Below, piece by piece: positions 50,493-62,398 of a stretch of 64,000 bases of DNA; position 1 is the stretch's first letter, and the number at the start of each line of letters is the position of its first letter. This DNA is from Allomuricauda sp. (GTDB lineage: Bacteria > Bacteroidota > Bacteroidia > Flavobacteriales > Flavobacteriaceae). Where the stretch lies: contig JAWKNC010000001.1 in the NCBI GenBank assembly GCA_041391945.1, positions 189,817-253,816 of the forward strand, read 5' to 3'. The translations under genes were made by a program, and so were the position numbers. The notes under the pieces are model-generated. The model was not told where the DNA came from. It ran no database searches and worked only from the letters and a program-made list of their open reading frames with translations.

Positions 50493-53400
50493 ATCAAACG
50501 GTCTGTTTACATAATATTTATTGTATGCTTTGCCATGGACTTCCTTCAAGGGCAGACCAATCCGATAGACAGTTTGCAAAAGAGGTACCACGAGGTAGAT
50601 TCGGACTCCTTGCGCATCCGTATCTTGAAGGATATTGCGTGGGAATACCTCAATAATCGTGGCAATGCGGAACTGGCAAAGAAGCATATCGATAGTTTTT
50701 ACACTATCAGCAAAGAAGCCAATATCCCTTGGGGAATCACCATGGCCAACTACCAATATGCGGTACTGGACAGGCAGAAGGGAAACTATAGCAAAGCCCT
50801 TGCCCATATTGACGGATACCTCGATTCCCCAATCACCCAAAAAGAGCCTTTTGCCATAGCCAACGGACTGTACCAAAAGGCCTTGATCCTTGACAATTAT
50901 GGCAGTTTAGAGGAAAGCTTGAAAATCTATTACGATATCCTCAAGATCTACGAAAAGCAAAAAGATTCCTTTAGCTATGCCTTTACATTGAATGCCATGG
51001 GCGAAATCCAAAAAAAGACTGGAAAAATGTCCGAAGCCATGGAAAGCTACGAGCATGCTCTGGGTATTTTTAGAGATTTGGGCGACAAAACGGAAATTGC
51101 CAATTGCCTTTTCAACATAGGGGACACCTATCTACAACAAAAACAATACGATAAGGCACTGGAGTACTTGAACAAATCCTTGGCCTTGGATGAAGAGACC
51201 AACAGCGAATGGGGAAAAGCTTTTGATTATGAGGCTCTGGGGAAGGTATATGGTCATCAAAAAAAATATGCCCAATCTTTGGAATACCACAAAAAGGCGT
51301 TGGAACTCAGGGAAAAGTTGGGGCAAAGGTTGGAACTCTCCATGAGCCATACCCAGATTGGCATCATAAATCTAAAAATGAAAGATTTCGCCAATGCCGA
51401 GGAAAGTATTCTTAAGGCCATAGAAGTTTCCAAGGATATTGGCGCAAAACCCCAACTCCAGGAAAATTATGAAATCCTCTCCCAGATATACGAACAAACT
51501 GGGGAATACGAAAAAGCACTGACCTTCAAAAATAAATTTGTCACACTGAAGGACAGTCTGTTCACCGAGGCCAAATCCAGGCAAATTGAAGAACTTCAGG
51601 TGCGGTTTGACACGGAAAAAAAACAGGATGCCATTGCTGCACTTCAAAAAGATGCCGAAATAAACGACCTAAAGCTCCGTCAGCAAAAAACACTCCGTAA
51701 TGTGGTCATCGGTATTGCCCTTGCAGGTTTGGTGTTCCTTTGGTTCGCCTTTAACCGATACAAACAGGCTCAACGTGCCAAGCAGGCCGAAGAGGAGAAG
51801 AAAAGAGCCATTTTGGAGGAACGGAAACGCACCGAAATTGAGAAACAACGGGTAAGCGAGCTTCAAAAAATAGACAAACTCAAGGATGAGTTCCTGGCCA
51901 ATACCTCCCACGAGCTTCGAACTCCTCTGGTGGGGATCATCGGTCTTACGGAGTCCCTGAAAGATGGTGTGGCCGGCAAACTGCCAAAGGCAGCTTTGGA
52001 AAACCTGGATATGATCGCCAATAGCGGCAAAAGGCTCTCACATTTGGTGAACGATATCCTCGACTTTTCAAAATTGAAGAACAAAGATTTGGAATTATCG
52101 CCAAAGCCAGTGGATGTCCATGCTATTTCCAGTATCGTTCTACGCCTGTCCAACCCATTGGTAAAGGATAAAAAATTAAAACTGATCAATTCCATTCCCA
52201 AAGAGGTGCCCTTGGTTGAGGCCGATGAAAACAGACTCCAACAAATATTGTACAATTTGGTGGGCAATGCCATCAAGTTTACGCACAAGGGGTACATTAC
52301 CCTGTCCTCGGAAATACAGGAAAATAGGCTTGCCATATCGATTGCCGATACCGGAATAGGAATCCAAGATGATAAATTGGATATCATCTTCAATTCCTTT
52401 GAGCAGGCGGATGGATCCACACAAAGGGAATATGGCGGTACGGGACTTGGGCTTTCGGTGACCAAACAACTGGTAGAACTCCATGGTGGTACTATAAGTG
52501 CCTCTTCCGAAAAAGGCAAGGGTTCCATTTTCACCTTTACACTTCCGCTAAGCACCAAAAAGAGAAAGGACCTTAAAAAGGAGGACTACACCCCGGAGGA
52601 TTTCGTCCAAAACATAGTCGCTCATGATGAAGATTTATCCATATCCGGAAAAAGGCCCAAATCTTCAGAGGAAGCCGCCAAAATACTTATTGTTGATGAC
52701 GAGCCCGTCAACAGACGGGTCTTGGAAAACCATTTGACCGTTGCCGGATACGACATAACCGAGGTAAGCACGGGAAAAGGAGCCTTAAAGTTGCTTGAGG
52801 AAGATGCATCCTTCAACTTGGTTCTGCTGGATATCATGATGCCCGAAATTTCCGGTTATGAGGTCTGTGAAAAAATCCGAGAAAAATACCCGGCCAGCGA
52901 CCTGCCCATCATTTTACTCACGGCAAAGAACACGGTCAGTGATCTTGTGACCGGTTTCAACTCGGGGGCCAACGATTATTTGACCAAGCCCTTCTCCAAG
53001 AATGAACTTTTGAGCCGGATCAAGACCCACCTCAACCTCAACACCATCCATAGGGCCACTTCACGATTTGTGCCAGCAGAATTTGTGCGTTCCGTGGGCA
53101 AGGAATCCATCACGGATATTCGGCTGGGAGATCACATTGAGAAAAGTGTAACCGTTCTGTTCTCCGATATTCGGGACTACACAACCCTTTCCGAAAGCAT
53201 GACGCCCACCCAGAACTTTAAGTTCGTCAATGCGTACGTGGGTCGTATGGGACCCATCATCAAGGACAACGATGGTTTTGTAAACCAGTATATGGGAGAC
53301 GGAATCATGGCCCTATTCCCCAAAAAACCTGAAAATGCCTTGGATGCCGCCATAGAAATGCAACGGACCTTGGCCCTTTATAATAAAAGAAGAGTCGAGG

Positions 53401-53918
53401 AAAAAGGCTATAAACCGCTATCTGTTGGGATTGGGCTCCACACAGGGCCATTGATCATGGGCATCATTGGCGATTCCAAAAGAAATGATCCCGCGGTGAT
53501 TGCCGATACCGTAAACAGTGCCGCCAGGGTGGAGGGCGTCACCAAATATTTTGGGGCCAACATCATCATCAGTGAGGACAGTCTAAAATTAATGGAGGAT
53601 CCCTCAGGTTTCAATATTAGATATTTGGGAAAAGTGCGGGTAAAGGGCAAACAAAAAGCCATCGAAATTTATGAATGTATCGATGGCGACAGTGTGGAAA
53701 GCATCTCCTTAAAACTGGAGACCAAAAAACATTATGACGAGGGCATAGACCTCTTTTTCAACAGTCAGTTCAACGAGGCTTCCACAGCGTTTGAGTGGGT
53801 CCTCTACAAAAATCCAGGGGATTCCGTAGCCAAATACTTCAATGAAAAAGCCAAGAAATATGCGGTATTGGGTATTCCCGAGGATTGGGCATCAGGAACC
53901 GTACTGTACGAAAAATAG
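50493..53918 (+). CDS. Hybrid sensor: periplasmic TPRs - TM - HisKA/HATPase - REC - class III cyclase
   Basis: TPR repeats; TM VVIGIALAGLVFLWFAF; NTSHELRTP; NLVGNAIKF, DTGIG, GTGLGL; REC VDDE/LLDIMMP; cyclase LFSDIR, GDG, NSAARVE. In-frame ATC at 50493 restores a signal peptide (first ATG is 50535). Confidence 0.9.
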   Translation: MKRSVYIIFIVCFAMDFLQGQTNPIDSLQKRYHEVDSDSLRIRILKDIAWEYLNNRGNAELAKKHIDSFYTISKEANIPWGITMANYQYAVLDRQKGNYSKALAHIDGYLDSPITQKEPFAIANGLYQKALILDNYGSLEESLKIYYDILKIYEKQKDSFSYAFTLNAMGEIQKKTGKMSEAMESYEHALGIFRDLGDKTEIANCLFNIGDTYLQQKQYDKALEYLNKSLALDEETNSEWGKAFDYEALGKVYGHQKKYAQSLEYHKKALELREKLGQRLELSMSHTQIGIINLKMKDFANAEESILKAIEVSKDIGAKPQLQENYEILSQIYEQTGEYEKALTFKNKFVTLKDSLFTEAKSRQIEELQVRFDTEKKQDAIAALQKDAEINDLKLRQQKTLRNVVIGIALAGLVFLWFAFNRYKQAQRAKQAEEEKKRAILEERKRTEIEKQRVSELQKIDKLKDEFLANTSHELRTPLVGIIGLTESLKDGVAGKLPKAALENLDMIANSGKRLSHLVNDILDFSKLKNKDLELSPKPVDVHAISSIVLRLSNPLVKDKKLKLINSIPKEVPLVEADENRLQQILYNLVGNAIKFTHKGYITLSSEIQENRLAISIADTGIGIQDDKLDIIFNSFEQADGSTQREYGGTGLGLSVTKQLVELHGGTISASSEKGKGSIFTFTLPLSTKKRKDLKKEDYTPEDFVQNIVAHDEDLSISGKRPKSSEEAAKILIVDDEPVNRRVLENHLTVAGYDITEVSTGKGALKLLEEDASFNLVLLDIMMPEISGYEVCEKIREKYPASDLPIILLTAKNTVSDLVTGFNSGANDYLTKPFSKNELLSRIKTHLNLNTIHRATSRFVPAEFVRSVGKESITDIRLGDHIEKSVTVLFSDIRDYTTLSESMTPTQNFKFVNAYVGRMGPIIKDNDGFVNQYMGDGIMALFPKKPENALDAAIEMQRTLALYNKRRVEEKGYKPLSVGIGLHTGPLIMGIIGDSKRNDPAVIADTVNSAARVEGVTKYFGANIIISEDSLKLMEDPSGFNIRYLGKVRVKGKQKAIEIYECIDGDSVESISLKLETKKHYDEGIDLFFNSQFNEASTAFEWVLYKNPGDSVAKYFNEKAKKYAVLGIPEDWASGTVLYEK

Positions 53919-54038: not shown

Positions 54039-55175
54039 TTATCTCCTGACGAACGATAGTCGGGATTTAATATGTTTAAAGGAAATCGACCGTATCCATA
54101 TCCTTGCCGGTTGTTCAAAATACCTGAAGGACAGCCATGCACTAACGCCATTGCAAAGTAGCATGAAAAGCAATGATAGCAACAATATGATAGTGCCAGG
54201 ATTTTCGCCAGGGTGTGCCGATACCCAATATTGCATCCCGATCCAATAGCCAAATAACCAAAGCGCTTGGAACATATAAAGCGAGAAGGAAATATCCCCA
54301 AAAAAACGTGCGGTACGGTGTGAGGCCAACCGATGAAGTACCCCTTTGTTGTGAGCCAAACTCAATATGACTGCCGCAAAAAATCCGACGGTAATGATAT
54401 CTTGCACCCCATAATGCATGCAGACCACGATCATGGTTAGGAATCCTACTCCAACGATGTCCTTTTCAAAGAAACCGCGGCCAATTTCCGACCTAAACGC
54501 TTGGTAGACCAATATGCCCATGGAGAACTCGGAGATACATCTAAAAAGACCAAACTCCCACGTAGTGTTCAGATTTCCTTCTTCATGCCATCCCGGAATA
54601 AGGAACAACAGTCCAATACCTACAATTGTCAACACCGAAAGGGTTAATTTCCTTTTCTTGAACAGCCATACGAAAACGGGGATCATAATCAGGTAGGTCC
54701 ACCATTCCGCTCCTATGGACCATGCCGGCATGTTCCAGCTCAATCCACTTGGATCTCCAAAGGTTTCCCCAAAAATCAGGTGTCTCCAAAATCCTTCCCA
54801 GGGATAAACAAATGCAAAATCCGATGCGGTCTTGGGCGCCAATGCGAGCAGAGACCCAAAAAAGATGAGATGAATAAAAAGCTGTAACAAATGCAATGGA
54901 TACAGCCTTGCAAACCTGGCCTTGATAAATGAGGCTATGGTCTCGAAACTGGGCGTCTTGAACTTATCGCCATACACATGTGTAATCACGAAGCCGCTCA
55001 AAATAAAAAAGAAATCGACCCACAGATATCCTTTGCCCAATAGCATACTAGCATCCCTCGATATTAGAGTGGGCAATCCCGTAAATGAAGTGACCTCATC
55101 GAAATGAAAGATGACCACCCAAATGGCTGCCAGTCCCCGTAAGGGAGTCAATGTTCCTATATATTTTTTCATCAT
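54039..55175 (-). CDS. Acyltransferase family 3 (OafA-like) membrane protein
   Basis: LRGLAAIWVVIFH, VDFFFILSGFVI, RFARLYPLH, WSIGAEW, GDISFSLYMFQ, RYFEQP. Confidence 0.9.
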   Translation of the reverse strand: MMKKYIGTLTPLRGLAAIWVVIFHFDEVTSFTGLPTLISRDASMLLGKGYLWVDFFFILSGFVITHVYGDKFKTPSFETIASFIKARFARLYPLHLLQLFIHLIFFGSLLALAPKTASDFAFVYPWEGFWRHLIFGETFGDPSGLSWNMPAWSIGAEWWTYLIMIPVFVWLFKKRKLTLSVLTIVGIGLLFLIPGWHEEGNLNTTWEFGLFRCISEFSMGILVYQAFRSEIGRGFFEKDIVGVGFLTMIVVCMHYGVQDIITVGFFAAVILSLAHNKGVLHRLASHRTARFFGDISFSLYMFQALWLFGYWIGMQYWVSAHPGENPGTIILLLSLLFMLLCNGVSAWLSFRYFEQPARIWIRSISFKHIKSRLSFVRR

Positions 55176-55232: not shown

Positions 55233-58200
55233 TTATGCCATAACCGATTCCTCTTGATTTTTGTTCGACATGGCGTGATAACCAACATATCTATTCTGTA
55301 CCTTTTTTTGAATCTCCGTGACCCAATATTGGTCCATAGTTTGCTCTTCTTCAAGCATTTTTTGAAATCTCCCTTCCATTTTCAAATAGGCCAACAACGG
55401 TATTTTTGGGGCTTTGGAATCCAGCTGTAAAGGCAATCGGCCCTCTTCAATCATTTTTGGGTCGTGCCTGTACAATAACCACTGCCCCGACGCAACCGCC
55501 GCTTTATGGTATTGCGATGGGTTTTTCATATCGATGCCATGCGAAGGGCTATGGCAATAAGCAATGATAATGGATGGCCCTTGGTGTTTTTCGGCTTCAA
55601 CAAATGCATTGAGTGTCTGTTGTTGATCGGCACCAATGGCCACCGAAGCCACATAAACATCCTCGTAATTCATGGCCAATAAACCCAAGTCCTTCTTTTG
55701 TTTCTTTTTGCCCCTAGCTGCAAATCGGGCCGAGGCGCCATAAGGGGTAGCCTTGGACATTTGCCCTCCCGTGTTGGAATACGCTTCATTGTCCAAAACC
55801 AAAATATTGACGTTCTCGCCAGATGCAAGGACATGATCTAGGCCGCCATATCCAATATCGTAGGCCCAACCATCGCCCCCAACAATCCAAACACTCTTTT
55901 TTACCAAGCTCTCCACTAGGTTGAGCAGTTTTTTGGCATCGTCGGATTCTATTTTTTGCAGCTGGATTTTAAGTGTCTCTATTCGATTTCTTTGTTGATC
56001 AATTTCCAAGTCACTGGATTGTGGCGCATTCAGAATCGCCTCGACCAAATCACTGTCGAGATATTGGGCCATCTTTGCAAGCAAATCTTTGGCTTGATTT
56101 TCCTTTTGGTTTAGGGACAACCGAAATCCAAGACCAAATTCCGCATTGTCCTCGAAAAGTGAGTTGGACCATGCCGGCCCCCTACCCTGTTCATTTTTGG
56201 ACCATGGCGTAGTGGGCAGTGCACCACCAAAAATGGAACTGGCACCAGTAGCATTGGCCACCAACATGCGATCTCCGAAAAGTTGGGACAACAATTTTAA
56301 ATAAGTGGCCTGTCCACAACCATCCTCCCCCATGGGATATTTGAACAAAGGCTCCTGCAATTGTTGCTGACCGACTTTATTTGTATCCAATTTGGTCCTA
56401 TCGAACTCTGGTATAGTTTCAAAATACATCCAGTTTTCCCTTTCTTTTTCGATTCTGGATAGGCTCTTGTTCATCATCAAGGCCTTCGCTGGACAGGCAT
56501 CCACACAATTGTTGCAGGACGTACATTGATCTGGGTTAACTTGAATGGTATAGTTCAACAAGTCGAATCCTTCCATTTCTTCCATAAATTCCATGGATTT
56601 GAAACTGGATGGTGCACCATTTTTGATTGTGTTTTCAAAAGCCTTTATACGCAATGCACCAGACGGACAGGCCATGCTGCAGGCCCCACATTGGGTACAC
56701 AGATCGGTATTCCACTCGGGAAGTTCCACAACCATTTTCCTTGTATTGTGTGTTGAAGTACCTGTGGCAAAGGTTCCATCCACTGGCAATAGGCTCACTG
56801 GAAGTTCATTCCCTTTTCCGGCCAAAAGGCTTCCCAAAAGGGTTTTGGAAAATACTTCATCTTGGGAAAGTATACTTTCATTTTCCAAAATTGAAGTATC
56901 CACTTTTCTGATGAGCTGCCCCAAAGTTTCAAGAGCTGAATTCTGGTTCGCCCCACTTTTCAAAGCAAAATACGATGCGTGCAATCCTGAAACAGCATAT
57001 CCGTTCATCATATAACTGCTGGATAAGACTTCACTGGGAGCAACATATACATCAAGACTTTTCTCCTGAATTAGTTTCTGGGTTCTGCATGGAAGTGTTC
57101 CCCAAAAACGGTCTGGTCCTGAGTCGGATAGTACCAAGAGGGTTCCTGAATTTTGAACGTTCTCCAAAACCGAATCCTGCTCCACAAAAGCCACATCATC
57201 ACAGGCCACAAAATTGGCATGCTGTATCAAATAAGGAGCCTTTATGGGTTCGGGAGCCATACGCAAATGGGAAACATTCCTGGAATTGGATTTTCTATAA
57301 TCGCATTCCATATAGCCCTGCACAAAATTTTCGGTAGTTTCTCCCAATAGCTTTAAAATGACATTGAATTGTTCCTGTGTTTTATCGGTTTTGGTTTGAT
57401 AGAAAAGGGCCTGTTCAAATTTCGATGGCAAGTTGAATCCATCGACCGGAAGGCTCAAGTGGGTAACATCATCCAAAATACCCACAGTGAAATTGTTTTT
57501 GGGTTCCTTGCGTTTTAGGTTGTCCACAAGAGTTTTGACCATGGCAGGGGTAAATTCCTTGGAACTCAACCCATAGCGTCCCCCAACTATTTTTGGGAAT
57601 GAGTCAAATCTATTGCATTGTGCAACGGACTGGACCACATCCAAATACAAGGGCTCACTCGTGGAACCAGGTTCTTTGGTTCGGTCCAATACGGCAATGG
57701 CGCTGCAAGATTTGGGCAAGCTGTTGATGAAATGATCAACACTGAAAGGTCTGAACAATCTAACCTTGACCAAACCTATTTTTTCGCCCTGTACATTCAA
57801 ATGGGCGATGGTTTCCTCCAAGGTCTCCGTAGCAGAGGCCATGGCAACGATCACCTGCTCAGCCTCTGGATGTCCTATATATTCAAAAATCTTGTGCTGT
57901 CTGCCCGTGAGCTCGGCAAATTCATCCATTTTATGCTGAACGATGGTTGGACAAGCATCATAATAGCAGTTGACGGCCTCCCTGCTTTGAAAGAATACGT
58001 CCGGTCCTTGGGAAGTTCCCCTGATAACTGGGTTGTTTGGGTCAAGAGCCCTATTTCGATGGGAGTTGACCATATCTTCATCGATCATACTGCGTATGGC
58101 ATGATCTGTAATTTTTTCAATTTTTGATACTTCATGGGAGGTTCTGAACCCATCAAAGAAGTGTACAAAAGGTATTCTTGATGCCAACGAAGCGGCTTGT

Positions 58201-58670
58201 GATATCAAGGCGAAATCCATAGCTTCCTGCACGGAACCTGAAGCCAAAAGGGCATATCCAGTATTTCGTACGGCCATAACATCGCTATGGTCCCCAAACA
58301 CCGAAAGCGCATGCGTTGCCACCGATCTTGTGGCCACATGGATTACGTTAGGGGTAAGCTCCCCTGCTATTTTATACATATTGGGCATCATCAATAACAA
58401 CCCTTGTGATGCGGTAAAGGTGGTTGACAATGAACCGGTCTGCAATGCGCCGTGCATGGCTCCCGCCACCCCGGCTTCACTTTGCATTTCAAAAGTTGCG
58501 GGGACATTGCCAAAAATATTTTTATGCTGGTATGCACTCCATTCCTCAACCAACTCGGCCATTTCAGAAGCCGGAGTAATGGGGTAAATGGGAAAAACAT
58601 CATTGATGCGGTAGGCTACATGTGCTACGGCCTGATTTCCATTTACGATTATGTGTTTTTGGTTTTTCAT
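55233..58670 (-). CDS. nifJ: Pyruvate:ferredoxin/flavodoxin oxidoreductase homologue with degenerate proximal Fe-S and CoA-binding sites
   Basis: YPITP, MQSEAG, TASQGLLLM, FFDGFRTSHE, two CxxCxxCxxxCP motifs, GDGWAYDIG, YSNTGGQ. Start set to ATG 58670. Confidence 0.9.
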   Translation of the reverse strand: MKNQKHIIVNGNQAVAHVAYRINDVFPIYPITPASEMAELVEEWSAYQHKNIFGNVPATFEMQSEAGVAGAMHGALQTGSLSTTFTASQGLLLMMPNMYKIAGELTPNVIHVATRSVATHALSVFGDHSDVMAVRNTGYALLASGSVQEAMDFALISQAASLASRIPFVHFFDGFRTSHEVSKIEKITDHAIRSMIDEDMVNSHRNRALDPNNPVIRGTSQGPDVFFQSREAVNCYYDACPTIVQHKMDEFAELTGRQHKIFEYIGHPEAEQVIVAMASATETLEETIAHLNVQGEKIGLVKVRLFRPFSVDHFINSLPKSCSAIAVLDRTKEPGSTSEPLYLDVVQSVAQCNRFDSFPKIVGGRYGLSSKEFTPAMVKTLVDNLKRKEPKNNFTVGILDDVTHLSLPVDGFNLPSKFEQALFYQTKTDKTQEQFNVILKLLGETTENFVQGYMECDYRKSNSRNVSHLRMAPEPIKAPYLIQHANFVACDDVAFVEQDSVLENVQNSGTLLVLSDSGPDRFWGTLPCRTQKLIQEKSLDVYVAPSEVLSSSYMMNGYAVSGLHASYFALKSGANQNSALETLGQLIRKVDTSILENESILSQDEVFSKTLLGSLLAGKGNELPVSLLPVDGTFATGTSTHNTRKMVVELPEWNTDLCTQCGACSMACPSGALRIKAFENTIKNGAPSSFKSMEFMEEMEGFDLLNYTIQVNPDQCTSCNNCVDACPAKALMMNKSLSRIEKERENWMYFETIPEFDRTKLDTNKVGQQQLQEPLFKYPMGEDGCGQATYLKLLSQLFGDRMLVANATGASSIFGGALPTTPWSKNEQGRGPAWSNSLFEDNAEFGLGFRLSLNQKENQAKDLLAKMAQYLDSDLVEAILNAPQSSDLEIDQQRNRIETLKIQLQKIESDDAKKLLNLVESLVKKSVWIVGGDGWAYDIGYGGLDHVLASGENVNILVLDNEAYSNTGGQMSKATPYGASARFAARGKKKQKKDLGLLAMNYEDVYVASVAIGADQQQTLNAFVEAEKHQGPSIIIAYCHSPSHGIDMKNPSQYHKAAVASGQWLLYRHDPKMIEEGRLPLQLDSKAPKIPLLAYLKMEGRFQKMLEEEQTMDQYWVTEIQKKVQNRYVGYHAMSNKNQEESVMA

Positions 58671-58708
58671 GAGGGTGGATTGTGACTTTGGTAAGGTGGA
58701 TTCAAATG

Positions 58709-58741
58709 AATAAGCCACTCCAAAAATGGGAGTGGCTTATT
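58709..58741. terminator. 13-bp perfect hairpin between the OsmC-like and PFOR-like genes (terminator or mRNA stabiliser)
   Basis: aataagccactcc-aaaaatg-ggagtggcttatt; weak U-tract on the sense (minus) strand. Confidence 0.6.
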
Positions 58742-58750
58742 TCATGCCTA

Positions 58751-59302
58751 TTACTTTTCGAACTCGATGGTAACAGGAGTTGGGTTGGTCAACATATCGA
58801 ATACGGGGGAGAATTGGGCCAAAGCTCTCAATTGCTCTTCAGAAGCGTCAGTCTTTACCTTGAATTTTACAGTAATACCGTTGTATCCTTTTCTAACTTC
58901 AGGGTCAAGACCCAAGAATCCGTGAAGGTCAACATCACCGGTCAAAGAGGACTCAGCACCTTCAATTTCAATTCCGTTGGCAGCGGCATGGTAAGCCATG
59001 GCACCGGTCAAACAAGAACCAAGGGCGTGCAAAACAATCTCTGCAGGGTTGGGTGCCTGGTCTTTTCCCAAAAGAACCTCAACGTGGTCAGCTTCCATGG
59101 TAAAGGAATCTTTTCTTGTTGGGTGCTCTTGTCCTACACCGTAATAATCTTGGATGCTGGTCACACAGTGACCTCCTTCGATCCAATTGTTTTTGGCCCT
59201 GAACTCGAATTTTGCCAATTCAGGATTTCCTTGTACTGCGTTGATAGTATCTACCAACTGATCTACGTTTACTCCGTTTTTAATGTTTGCTGTTGTAATC
59301 AT
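58751..59302 (-). CDS. OsmC/Ohr family protein
   Basis: NGVNVDQL, LLGKDQAPNPAEIVLHALGSCLT, GDVDLHGFLGL, SPVFDMLTNPTPV. Confidence 0.88.
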   Translation of the reverse strand: MITTANIKNGVNVDQLVDTINAVQGNPELAKFEFRAKNNWIEGGHCVTSIQDYYGVGQEHPTRKDSFTMEADHVEVLLGKDQAPNPAEIVLHALGSCLTGAMAYHAAANGIEIEGAESSLTGDVDLHGFLGLDPEVRKGYNGITVKFKVKTDASEEQLRALAQFSPVFDMLTNPTPVTIEFEK

Positions 59303-59348
59303 TGTTTTTAGATTTTAAGATTAATTGATTAACATTTGCCTCAATAGA

Positions 59349-59364
59349 TGCATTTGCCGTGCCA
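59349..59364 (-). promoter_or_regulatory. Sigma54 (-24/-12) promoter for the OsmC-like/PFOR-like genes
   Basis: Minus strand TGGCACGGCAAATGCA: GG-N10-GC in TGGCAC context, 46 nt upstream of the ATG. Confidence 0.85.
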
Positions 59365-59383
59365 AAAAATGTAATCATCTTAA

Positions 59384-59396
59384 AATCAATATTTTA
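59384..59396 (+). promoter_or_regulatory. IHF-like site between enhancer and sigma54 promoter
   Basis: AATCAA-TATT-TTA matches WATCAR-N4-TTR. Confidence 0.5.
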
Positions 59397-59424
59397 CAAC
59401 GATATTTTGTATCATGTTAGGTAG

Positions 59425-59482
59425 CGAAATTTCATTAATCAACGAAATTTCGTGAATTTATTTATGAGATTTCGTGAATTTA
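59425..59482. promoter_or_regulatory. Putative upstream activator sequences for the sigma54 activator
   Basis: Palindrome ACGAAATTTCGT (59442-59453), partial copy CGAAATTTC (59425-59433), direct repeat ATTTCGTGAATTTA at 59447 and 59469. Confidence 0.7.
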
Positions 59483-61330
59483 TAGAGGCCGGGCTATGCC
59501 CAATGCCTTTATTCTGGAGGTAAGTGTGGTCGGGGGGATTCCCAAAAGTGCGGCAGCACCTTTTTCCCCAGAAATTTTCCAACGGGTCTTTTTCAGGGCC
59601 TTCAAGATATTATCCTTTTCCAACCCAAGGAGTTCTTGGGACGTGTAGATATGATCTTCTTCAATTTGGGTGACCGTCTGCTTGCTTCCGCTTACATCGG
59701 GGATGATGTTGGACCAATCAATTTCCCCATCTTTTGAAACGATGATGGCACGCTCCACCAAATTTTGAAGCTCCCTTACGTTGCCAGGCCAATCGTACTG
59801 CAAAAAAAGTTTCTTTTGCTCCGCTGTGAAAGGATTTATTTTCCGATTCAGTTTTTTGGAAAAATGCCGTACCATGTTTTCTGCAATCAGGCTTACGTCG
59901 TTGCCCCTATCCCGCAGGGCAGGGATCTCTATCGGAAAAACGTTCAACCTATAATAAAGGTCTTCCCTAAATTTTCCATCCTTGGAAAATTGCAGCAAAT
60001 CCCGGTGCGAGGCTGCTATAATGCGGACATCCACCTTTTGTGTGGTGGAGCTTCCCACGGGATCAAATTCCCCTTCTTGGATTACCCTCAGTAATTTGGG
60101 TTGAAGATCCAACGGAAGCTCCCCAATCTCATCCAAAAAGATGGTACCCTTGTCCGCCAGGGAAAACCGGCCTTTTCTACTTGCGGTGGCACCGGTAAAA
60201 GCGCCTTTTTCATGCCCGAAGAGTTCACTCTCAATCAAATTGGCAGGAATGGCCCCACAATTGATACGGATCAACGGTCCATGGGCCCGGTTACTAGCTG
60301 CATGGATGGCCCTGGCCACCAGTTCCTTTCCCGTTCCCGTTTCGCCATGGATCAGTACCGTGGCTTCGGTGTGAGCCACCTGTTTGATCAAATCCAGAAC
60401 TTTTTTGATAGCTCTGTGCTGGCCTATGATGCCGTGATCATTGGTAAGTTCCTTTATCTCCTCCTGCAAATATTGAGTCTGACTTTGCAGGGAAGTTATC
60501 TCGTTTTCTGCTTTTAGGCGATCATCGATGTTACGCAATATTAAGGTATAAAATGTGTCCGTTTCATTTCCATACCTACTGATGGTGCCTTCATTGAGCG
60601 TCTCTTTTTCATCAGACCCAATAACCTTGATGACTTGCGGCAAATAGGTGTTCATAACTTCCCGTTTGCCCTTTTGGCTTGATGCTATCAGAGATTCCAA
60701 CAGCTCTGCACTGGCATCGTCCAAAAAATAAAGCAGGTTCCGTTGAATCACATCATCATTCTGGAACAGAGCCTGCGCCGAGGCATTGGCCAAGACTATC
60801 CTAAAATCGGTATCGAACATGATTATGGCATCCATGGCCCCATCAATGAGCCCGGTCATTTTGGAATTGGCCAGTTCTACCTCTTTTTTAGAAGCCGATA
60901 ATCTTTCCTGAATGATATCCAGTTCCCGGTGCCTTTTGATCAATACCGACAAAACTCCCATGACAAAACCTTTATCCGAGCCGATCAGATTGGAAAAATG
61001 GGATGATTTTATCTTTAAAAGCGTGGTGTCCTCTTCCGCGGTAACCGATACAGATCTCGGTTTTTGGTCCAATAGAGCATATTCCCCGAAACATTCCCCT
61101 TTGGACAATGAACCATAACGATGTTCCTTATCATGCACCTTTACCTTACCTTCAAGTATGACGTACATGCCATCCCCAACATCTCCCTTCTCAATAATAC
61201 GGTGGGTTTTACCAAAATGCTCCTCTTCCGAATTTCTGCAAAGTTCCAAAAGCGAAACTTTTTCCACCTCGGAAAAGAAAGGAACTTCTTTTAGGAAATC
61301 TACCAATTCACGAAGTCGGGTTGAGGTCAT
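59480..61330 (-). CDS. Sigma54-dependent activator (bEBP): cNMP-binding - PAS - AAA+ - HTH
   Basis: FGEYALLDQKPRSVSV phosphate-binding cassette; PAS GAMDAIIMFD; GETGTGKE, ESELFGHEKGAFTGA, FLDEIGE, DLYYRLN, WPGNVRELQN; GAAALLGIPPTTL. Confidence 0.92.
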   Translation of the reverse strand: MTSTRLRELVDFLKEVPFFSEVEKVSLLELCRNSEEEHFGKTHRIIEKGDVGDGMYVILEGKVKVHDKEHRYGSLSKGECFGEYALLDQKPRSVSVTAEEDTTLLKIKSSHFSNLIGSDKGFVMGVLSVLIKRHRELDIIQERLSASKKEVELANSKMTGLIDGAMDAIIMFDTDFRIVLANASAQALFQNDDVIQRNLLYFLDDASAELLESLIASSQKGKREVMNTYLPQVIKVIGSDEKETLNEGTISRYGNETDTFYTLILRNIDDRLKAENEITSLQSQTQYLQEEIKELTNDHGIIGQHRAIKKVLDLIKQVAHTEATVLIHGETGTGKELVARAIHAASNRAHGPLIRINCGAIPANLIESELFGHEKGAFTGATASRKGRFSLADKGTIFLDEIGELPLDLQPKLLRVIQEGEFDPVGSSTTQKVDVRIIAASHRDLLQFSKDGKFREDLYYRLNVFPIEIPALRDRGNDVSLIAENMVRHFSKKLNRKINPFTAEQKKLFLQYDWPGNVRELQNLVERAIIVSKDGEIDWSNIIPDVSGSKQTVTQIEEDHIYTSQELLGLEKDNILKALKKTRWKISGEKGAAALLGIPPTTLTSRIKALGIARPL

Positions 61331-61456
61331 GGTCCAGTCTCGATGTTGCTGTATGAAATAAATATAAAGATTTATGGGGATTACGGATATCAATTGCTCT
61401 TTTCAATAAATTAAATCGATGGTTTTTTCTATTTTTATTCTTCAAACCTATAGCAA

Positions 61457-62398
61457 ATGACCATTACCCAACTTCAATATGTTCTGGCTGTTGCGGAGTA
61501 CAGGAACTTTACCCTGGCGGCCGAAAAAAGCTTCGTAACCCAACCTACCTTGAGCATGCAGGTTCAAAAATTGGAGGATGAATTGGACGTGCTCATATTC
61601 GATCGTAGCAAAAAACCGATTTCCATCACCGAAGTGGGCACAAAAATAGTGGCGCAGGCGAAGAACATTGTAGCGGAAGCGGAACGCATCAAGGATATTG
61701 TAGATCAGGACAAAGGGTTTATTGGTGGAGACTATATCCTGGGAATCATCCCCACGGTGATGCCCACCCTATTGCCCATGTTCCTGAACACCTTCATCAA
61801 AAAATATCCAAAGGTCAATCTCATCATCAAAGAGCAGCCTACCGATGTGATGATCCGCAATATTTTGGACGGACATTTGGACGCGGGCATTGCCGCGACT
61901 CCCTTGGAAATAGAATTCATCAAAGAACGGCCGCTGTACTACGAACCCTTTGTGGGTTATGTGCCGAACAACCATCGGCTGTTTCCGGAAAAAATGCTGA
62001 CCACCGAACATTTGGATGTCAATGACATCCTTTTGTTGCAGGACGGCCACTGTTTTAGGGATGGGGTCATCAACCTTTGCAAATCTCCCAGAAGTGCACA
62101 CAGTGAACAGTTTAAAATTGAGAGTGGCAGTTTCGAGACCTTGGTAAGCCTTTCCGATGAGGGTATGGGAATGACCTTGTTGCCCTATTTGAACACACTT
62201 CACCTAGACAAAGCGAAAAAGGAAAATCTACGGCCTTTCAGGAGTCCTTCGCCAGCTCGTGAAATAAGCCTTATTTACCACAAAAGCGAACTCAAGATAC
62301 AGATTACGGAAGCCTTGAAAGAGGTTATCTCCGGTATCGTGCGGGGTGCCATAGCTTTTCAGGATGTGAAAATTATAAGTCCATTGGCCAAGAGTTAG
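61457..62398 (+). CDS. oxyR: Hydrogen peroxide-inducible LysR regulator OxyR
   Basis: NFTLAAEKSFVTQPTLS HTH; GHCFRDGVINLC carries both redox Cys. Confidence 0.92.
   Translation: MTITQLQYVLAVAEYRNFTLAAEKSFVTQPTLSMQVQKLEDELDVLIFDRSKKPISITEVGTKIVAQAKNIVAEAERIKDIVDQDKGFIGGDYILGIIPTVMPTLLPMFLNTFIKKYPKVNLIIKEQPTDVMIRNILDGHLDAGIAATPLEIEFIKERPLYYEPFVGYVPNNHRLFPEKMLTTEHLDVNDILLLQDGHCFRDGVINLCKSPRSAHSEQFKIESGSFETLVSLSDEGMGMTLLPYLNTLHLDKAKKENLRPFRSPSPAREISLIYHKSELKIQITEALKEVISGIVRGAIAFQDVKIISPLAKS

Follow-up and report, generated by a model that had tools for sequence, protein, structure and literature searches.

A predicted sigma-54 control module between an enhancer-binding activator gene and an OsmC-like/PFOR operon in Flavobacteriaceae

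How is an operon for an OsmC-like protein and a pyruvate:ferredoxin/flavodoxin oxidoreductase (PFOR) controlled, when the gene just upstream of it encodes a sigma-54 enhancer-binding activator? We have studied this question in a 64,000-nt stretch of contig JAWKNC010000001.1 from Allomuricauda sp. (assembly GCA_041391945.1, Flavobacteriaceae), below called the window. The activator gene, the control region, the OsmC-like gene and the PFOR gene all lie on the minus strand, with a spacer of 177 nt between the activator and the OsmC-like gene. The original prediction for this spacer listed the activator stop codon, repeats with a palindrome, a consensus site for IHF and a sigma-54 promoter, and each of them is found where it had been placed, read on the minus strand. 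As judged from sequence comparison, the spacer is very probably a complete, self-contained sigma-54 control module of the two-gene operon, covering the whole promoter, enhancer and bend mechanism.

The promoter, TGGCACGGCAAATGCA, has the form TGGCAC-N6-TGCA (the original prediction had N7 at this place), that is, the TGGCAC-N5-TTGC register with the canonical GG-N10-GC. It reads TGGCACG-GCAA-ATGCA, matching 11 of 12 consensus positions, is correctly oriented and non-coding, and ends 46 nt before the ATG of the OsmC-like gene. The pattern has a single match in the window; the mean for window shuffles is 0.25, and 21 out of 100 shuffles contain at least one match. Genome-wide (3.55 Mb, both strands), TGGCA[CT]-N6-TGC[AT] occurs 47 times, about eight of these matches, including the one considered here, being outside long open reading frames (ORFs), and the chance expectation for the 177-nt spacer on the right strand is about 0.001. 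The comparative data consist of 35 control regions, or modules, from other genomes of many genera, 27 of which were scored for site starts. All 35 retain the –24 GG, and 31 the –12 GC, with GT in the remaining four; TTTGGCAYG is near-invariant in an ungapped multi-genus stack, and the distance from the –12 C to the ATG is 45–49 nt in most modules. Transcription is predicted to start at a conserved CAAA near 59338, which is 12 nt past the –12 C. The resulting putative leader is conserved within the genus in an alignment of congeners, and an Rfam scan of the leader and the spacer yielded only sub-threshold noise and no family.

Upstream of the promoter we observe three 12-bp dyad sites with the consensus ACGAAATnTCGT and centre spacings of 22 and 18 bp. 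The original prediction had described a repeat here, and indeed the 14-mer TAAATTCACGAAAT (plus strand ATTTCGTGAATTTA) is present in exactly two copies, at 59469–59482 and 59447–59460, with starts 22 bp apart. Still, matches to it with two mismatches are common in window shuffles and its TAAATTC flank is not conserved in relatives, the three dyads being the better description. Scanning the genome with a palindrome weight matrix yields just one place where two or more sites cluster, and it is the locus studied here. To the same effect, a non-circular matrix trained on 69 sites, all from other genera, identifies a single cluster of strong sites in the 3.55-Mb genome, again at this locus, with site 2 the top-scoring site of the whole genome (19.4 bits). 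Relative to the T of TGGCA, sites start at –111 in 24, at –89 in 25 and at –71 in 21 of the 27 scored modules, and the deviations from these positions are 1–2 bp at most. Repeated dyads some 80–150 bp upstream of the promoter, conserved together with the activator, are characteristic of enhancers of bacterial enhancer-binding proteins (bEBPs), and the three dyads, centred near –131, –109 and –91, agree with this. A weak fourth palindrome-like match (12–14 bits) was considered as a functional site and is probably not one: its segment is unconserved both in the congener alignment and in the multi-genus stack.

Orthologues of the activator, searched for at strict E-values, as otherwise the generic AAA+ domain swamps the results, are present at approximately 70% identity in six of 24 congeneric genomes and, more widely, in 46 of 401 sampled Flavobacteriaceae genomes representing 40 genera. 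Outside the family, a single partial match with a different neighbourhood is seen among 401 genomes of the phylum. An alignment of five congeners (about 70% protein identity) retains the three dyads, the –50 box considered below, TTTTTGGCAYG-C-A-ATGCA and the leader, while some 25 nt past site 3 are scrambled and serve as an internal neutral control. The ungapped stack, comprising 29 loci of other genera, has the same conserved sites separated by unconserved spacers. At least 25 genera share the geometry of the module to the base pair, and the module is intact at 53% identity of the activator.

The site pattern and the activator gene occur together. A two-site pattern (CGA-N5-CRT, N11, CGA-N5-CRT, N8, GA) is found in 44 of the 401 family genomes, namely in 36 of 46 activator-positive and eight of 355 activator-negative ones; the latter eight matches are G+C-rich and random-looking, and the reversed control pattern matches 13 genomes. 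Ten activator-positive genomes seem to lack the pattern, and at least five of them do carry the module, with variant spacing or a variant site. Where the activator and the operon are apart (by 1.6–19 kb or on different contigs), the module stays beside the operon. Activator, operon and sites are inherited together.

The upstream gene encodes a complete bEBP by its sequence, with the AAA+ domain bearing GAFTGA and a Walker A motif, and with a helix-turn-helix at its C-terminal end. The Pfam domains are cNMP_binding (58–139), PAS (182–289), Sigma54_activat (322–489; PF00158, 1.2e-73), AAA_lid_14 and HTH_8 (591–630); in the translation one reads an intact GAFTGA, an intact Walker A motif (GETGTGK) and an intact cNMP cassette (FGE...PRS). 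Orthologues align from approximately residue 20. The protein scores under all NCBIfam equivalog cut-offs, including those of NifA (359 bits, cut-off 529), NorR (346 bits, cut-off 476), PrdR and NtrC, and is therefore not NifA, NorR, NtrC or another named regulator. The original prediction depended on the genome having rpoN, and the gene is present on contig C4 (PF04552, 172.8 bits) as an intact ORF of 485 aa that includes both region I and an RpoN box, ARRTVAKYR. The enhancer, bend and promoter layout that had been proposed for the spacer is supported by the conservation at fixed positions, the co-occurrence with the activator and the completeness of the bEBP, and rpoN-dependent, inducible transcription of the operon would be expected from it. 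Five true bEBPs are encoded in the genome. The only other consensus-grade intergenic sigma-54 promoters are TGGCACACGTTTTGCT, 41 nt ahead of a lipoprotein-like gene, and TGGCACAATGTTTGCT (contigs C3:179862-179877 and C7:226288-226303, respectively, both on the minus strand), and the sigma-54 regulon of this genome looks very small.

Downstream of the module one finds the OsmC-like gene in 27 of 34 loci, with PFOR behind it in at least 23 loci, as well as in six extended ones. For the OsmC-like protein, the NCBIfam match is OsmC-related (seleno)protein, with a score under the cut-off; PFOR is assigned by TIGR02176 (1403 bits, cut-off 911), with an uncertain start, another possible ATG being at 58670. 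A second PFOR gene is located on contig C2 (100548-101720; 58% identity across the first 400 residues), so the sigma-54-controlled copy is a paralogue. The gene next to PFOR varies across the six extended loci, and only the OsmC-like gene and PFOR count as conserved in the operon. The acyltransferase gene found there in the window was considered as a conserved operon member and rejected, as it is missing after PFOR in six other genomes; it is seen at that position only in this genome and is probably a later insertion.

The motif had been offered as a means to find the rest of the regulon. In its own genome it identifies no further member, and since there is no other cluster of sites, the regulon is one operon and the activator a local, dedicated regulator, in agreement with the original reading of the operon as a dedicated one. 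Second targets do appear in a few other genera. In genome G240 (locus L120, contig C15) a second module precedes genes for Methyltransf_31, a secreted AhpC/TSA redoxin, an unknown 151-aa protein, homocysteine S-methyltransferase and a DsrE-like protein, and in G347 (L121, contig C5) a second module precedes genes for a redoxin and the same unknown protein. Genes of these second operons have no homologue in the genome of the window; judging by them, the common theme of the regulon may be redox chemistry of thiols, sulfur or selenium. In two further genomes, G055 (L093) and G216 (L106), a module with a spacing of 23 rather than 22 between sites 1 and 2 lies directly behind the activator orthologue and is followed only by an ORF of approximately 40 aa with the conserved end WNSxRRYR, G055 having its OsmC-like/PFOR operon with a module of its own on another contig (L122). 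At these loci the same activator may control a small product, either protein or RNA. Modules that go with the operon and also precede other genes, as in these four genomes, are what is expected of sites for a diffusible activator.

Coordinates of the features are given in Table 1. The sensor listed there, combining TPR, histidine kinase, receiver and nucleotide cyclase domains, is convergent with the operon, and in three further genomes, which cover another genus too, homologues of it (65–77% identity) lie immediately behind PFOR in the convergent orientation. It is a candidate source of a cyclic nucleotide sensed by the activator; the synteny fits such a link and is no proof of it.

Table 1. 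Features of the activator, control region and operon locus (positions in the window; distances are from the predicted transcription start).
Feature	Position	Strand	Remarks
Sensor with TPR, histidine kinase, receiver and nucleotide cyclase domains	50535..53918	+	Convergent with the operon; Pfam HisKA, HATPase_c, Response_reg, Guanylate_cyc
Acyl_transf_3 gene	54039-55175	-	Between PFOR and the cyclase sensor
PFOR paralogue, single-chain, operon gene 2	55233..58718	-	1161 aa; TIGR02176
OsmC-like protein, operon gene 1	58751..59302	-	183 aa; ATG at 59302; Pfam OsmC 2.6e-14
Predicted 5' leader	59303..59338	-	A/T-rich, about 36 nt; from the promoter position
Sigma-54 promoter TGGCACGGCAAATGCA	59349..59364	-	–24 GG at 59363-59362, –12 GC at 59351-59350
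–50 box TAAAATATTGATT	59384..59396	-	Plus strand AATCAATATTTTA = WATCAANNNNTTR; centre about –52; candidate DNA-bending/architectural site
Weak fourth palindrome-like match ACAAAATATCGT	59399..59410	-	12–14 bits
Enhancer site 3 ATGAAATTTCGC	59424..59435	-	Centre about –91; most degenerate of the three
Enhancer site 2 ACGAAATTTCGT	59442..59453	-	Perfect palindrome; centre about –109
Enhancer site 1 ACGAAATCTCAT	59464..59475	-	Centre about –131; 4 nt past the activator stop
Activator stop codon TAA	59482-59480	-
Sigma-54 enhancer-binding activator (bEBP)	59480..61330	-	616 aa from ATG at 61330; open frame reaches TTG at 61393
OxyR-like LysR regulator	61457-62398	+	Divergent from the activator

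The third element of the module is the –50 box. On the plus strand, AATCAATATTTTA, located between the enhancer and the promoter, agrees at every position with the IHF core consensus of E. coli, WATCAANNNNTTR. The exact 13-bp consensus is present in the corresponding 58-nt spacer in 17 of the 35 modules, compared with 0.45 of 35 for shuffled spacers, its genome-wide rate being 0.105 per kb. Relative to TGGCA, these matches fall at two main offsets: 11 are in the reverse orientation at –32/–31 and eight in the forward one at –20, with one extra at –17. The two offsets correspond to the arms of a dyad, YAA-N4-TTGAT-W-ATCAA-N4-TTR in other genera, that is, to inverted, overlapping copies of the consensus. 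Both arms are exact in two genera, and in the genus of the window the left arm alone is exact. By these comparisons the –50 box is a genuine conserved element in an architectural position, the IHF label being tentative: the original assignment of an IHF site holds as regards the consensus match and the conserved box, and fails to find a protein reaching the cut-offs of IHF models. Only two HU-family proteins are encoded in the genome (contig C7, 228696-228965, and contig C2, 182845-183111), and neither reaches the NCBIfam IHF models (best scores 83 and 68 bits, cut-offs 111–120). For the one on contig C2, the best matches are IHF models, below cut-off; it has GRNISKNT in place of GRNP and thus lacks the intercalating proline of the arm. 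It may be regarded as a candidate, or a counter-candidate, for binding the –50 box.

It is possible, on tentative grounds, that the module works as a rigid "enhanceosome", with the dyad box as the mark of an HU/IHF-like architectural protein of Flavobacteriaceae that is homodimeric and specific for its sequence. If true, looping assisted in the manner of IHF would exist at sigma-54 promoters beyond Proteobacteria, on a symmetric form of the same site.

Of the alternatives, the one that survives best concerns this box and leaves the promoter and the enhancer as described. The box could be the operator of a second specific dimeric regulator providing an extra input, with candidates in the OxyR-like LysR protein, whose gene diverges from that of the activator, and in a CRP/FNR-like factor. 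Its dyad form in other genera (TAA-N4-TTGAT-W-ATCAA-N4-TTA) fits a homodimeric specific regulator, both HU-family proteins are under the IHF cut-offs and the more IHF-like of them has no arm proline, the two other good intergenic sigma-54 promoters of the genome have no –50 box, and 11 of 34 loci have a divergent LysR gene next to the activator. On the contrary, most of the loci examined lack the LysR neighbour, and the half-sites are exact IHF core consensus sequences in the 17 modules counted above. FNR boxes have an N4 spacing and CRP boxes N6, and the spacing of TTGAT-N1-ATCAA resembles neither. Moreover, the box is midway between the enhancer and the promoter, as are the architectural sites of NorR-type and other sigma-54 promoters (PMC2831303). 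We view a second regulator as a minority possibility. The LysR protein itself scores 198 bits with the OxyR model (cut-off 329), and where it is a neighbour, in several genera, it is conserved at 80–90% identity.

A more radical alternative disposes of sigma-54 altogether: the palindromes would be operators of a repressor or another regulator that is not a bEBP, the operon would be transcribed from a housekeeping promoter (TTG ... TAnnTTTG) or by read-through, and TGGCAC...TGCA would be incidental. It can draw on the T-rich run TACATTTTTTGG over the –24 region, which bears a loose resemblance to TAnnTTTG, and on the lack of a terminator between the activator gene and the operon. However, a search by eye for the Bacteroidota box TAnnTTTG finds no exact copy in the spacer, nor is there a conserved one in the stack. 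A scan of the spacer for sigma-70-type promoters and terminators gave nothing above shuffles, the sigma-70 promoter model not being applicable to Bacteroidota. The retention of GG and GC at a fixed spacing across genera is unlike an incidental match, sites 90–130 bp upstream are in the position of an enhancer rather than of an operator, and wherever the module is found, the genome also has a bEBP gene. We consider this alternative very improbable. As for chance matches in A/T-rich intergenic DNA, window shuffles are not decisive for single motifs, but order, spacing and sequence are conserved in 35 modules, with unconserved spacers as the internal control, and the locus holds the only site cluster of the genome, so that the comparative data effectively refute this explanation.

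Several observations weigh against the sigma-54 module as we describe it. Centre spacings of 22 and 18 bp place the three dyads on more than one face of the helix. Here the –12 element has ATGCA in place of TTGCA, and GT replaces GC in four of the orthologous modules. No terminator was found in the scan between the activator gene and the module, and read-through from the activator gene could yield expression independent of the activator. A canonical IHF is not encoded in the genome, according to the search with IHF models, and some other palindrome-binding protein, co-inherited with the activator and the operon, is formally conceivable as the one that recognizes the sites.

In the sigma-54 module that we favour, the polymerase would bind TGGCACG-N4-ATGCA and wait as a closed complex at –24/–12. 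Dimers of the activator would bind the three 12-bp dyads near –131, –109 and –91, and three dimers would make up the ATPase hexamer. The –50 box, bent by an HU/IHF-like protein or another factor, would let the hexamer contact sigma-54. Relief of the N-terminal sensor domains, for which a cyclic nucleotide and/or a signal sensed by PAS is the likeliest cause, would allow ATP hydrolysis to open the promoter, and transcription would proceed from near 59338.

The layout is a textbook one and the locus a well-supported new example of it, with a regulator and targets that have so far gone unstudied. Promoters of the –24/–12 type in Flavobacteriia have already been predicted in bulk in a computational survey (PMC12316311); OsmC is not mentioned there, pyruvate appears only in connection with a dehydrogenase complex of Bacilli, and this activator family, its enhancer and the –50 box are not described (PMC12316311). 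In the literature on sigma-54 and rpoN in Flavobacterium, on OsmC with PFOR in flavobacteria and on bEBPs of the cNMP type, we have not found this system described. An anonymous family of activators thereby becomes a unit with a binding-site consensus, a promoter, a predicted start site and target genes, which gives a handle on two unexplained proteins, the OsmC-like one and the PFOR paralogue, and on a possible cyclic-nucleotide input. For specialists, the interest lies in a geometry exact to the base pair over many genera and in a dyad IHF-like box without a recognisable IHF; the locus is a possible test bed for enhancer–promoter communication in Bacteroidota, and could serve flavobacterial genetics as a tightly off, inducible promoter.

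Three known systems invite comparison. The PFOR gene nifJ of Klebsiella has a NifA-activated sigma-54 promoter, and the two loci share a single-chain PFOR, a sigma-54 promoter, a dedicated bEBP and an upstream enhancer. Here, in contrast, a nif context is lacking, the activator is a protein other than NifA, the enhancer does not read TGT-N10-ACA, and PFOR is a paralogue existing beside a second copy and paired with an OsmC-like gene. Pu, nifH and glnHp2 are IHF-dependent sigma-54 promoters of Proteobacteria, which the present module resembles in having a match to WATCAANNNNTTR midway between the enhancer and the –24/–12 element; unlike in those promoters, the consensus takes the form of an inverted, overlapping dyad in other genera, and the genome has only two HU-family proteins, both below the cut-offs.

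The closest parallel is NorR/norVW of E. coli, where three dyad sites, all of them required, are read as three dimers forming one hexamer, and IHF binds between the enhancer and the sigma-54 promoter (PMC2831303). Both systems have three consecutive dyads, an architectural site and a sigma-54 promoter in a compact region adjoining the activator gene, and in both the regulon is local, confined to one or a few operons with stress or detoxification genes. They differ in the site (ACGAAATnTCGT here, GT-N7-AC in NorR), in the sensing part (cNMP-binding and PAS domains here, GAF with an iron centre in NorR), in gene order (the activator is co-directional with its target here, and norR is divergent) and in the host, which belongs here to a phylum without canonical IHF. 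From its sequence, then, the locus appears to work like NorR/norVW while not being a member of that system, given the different site sequence and sensor domains and a NorR score below the cut-off.

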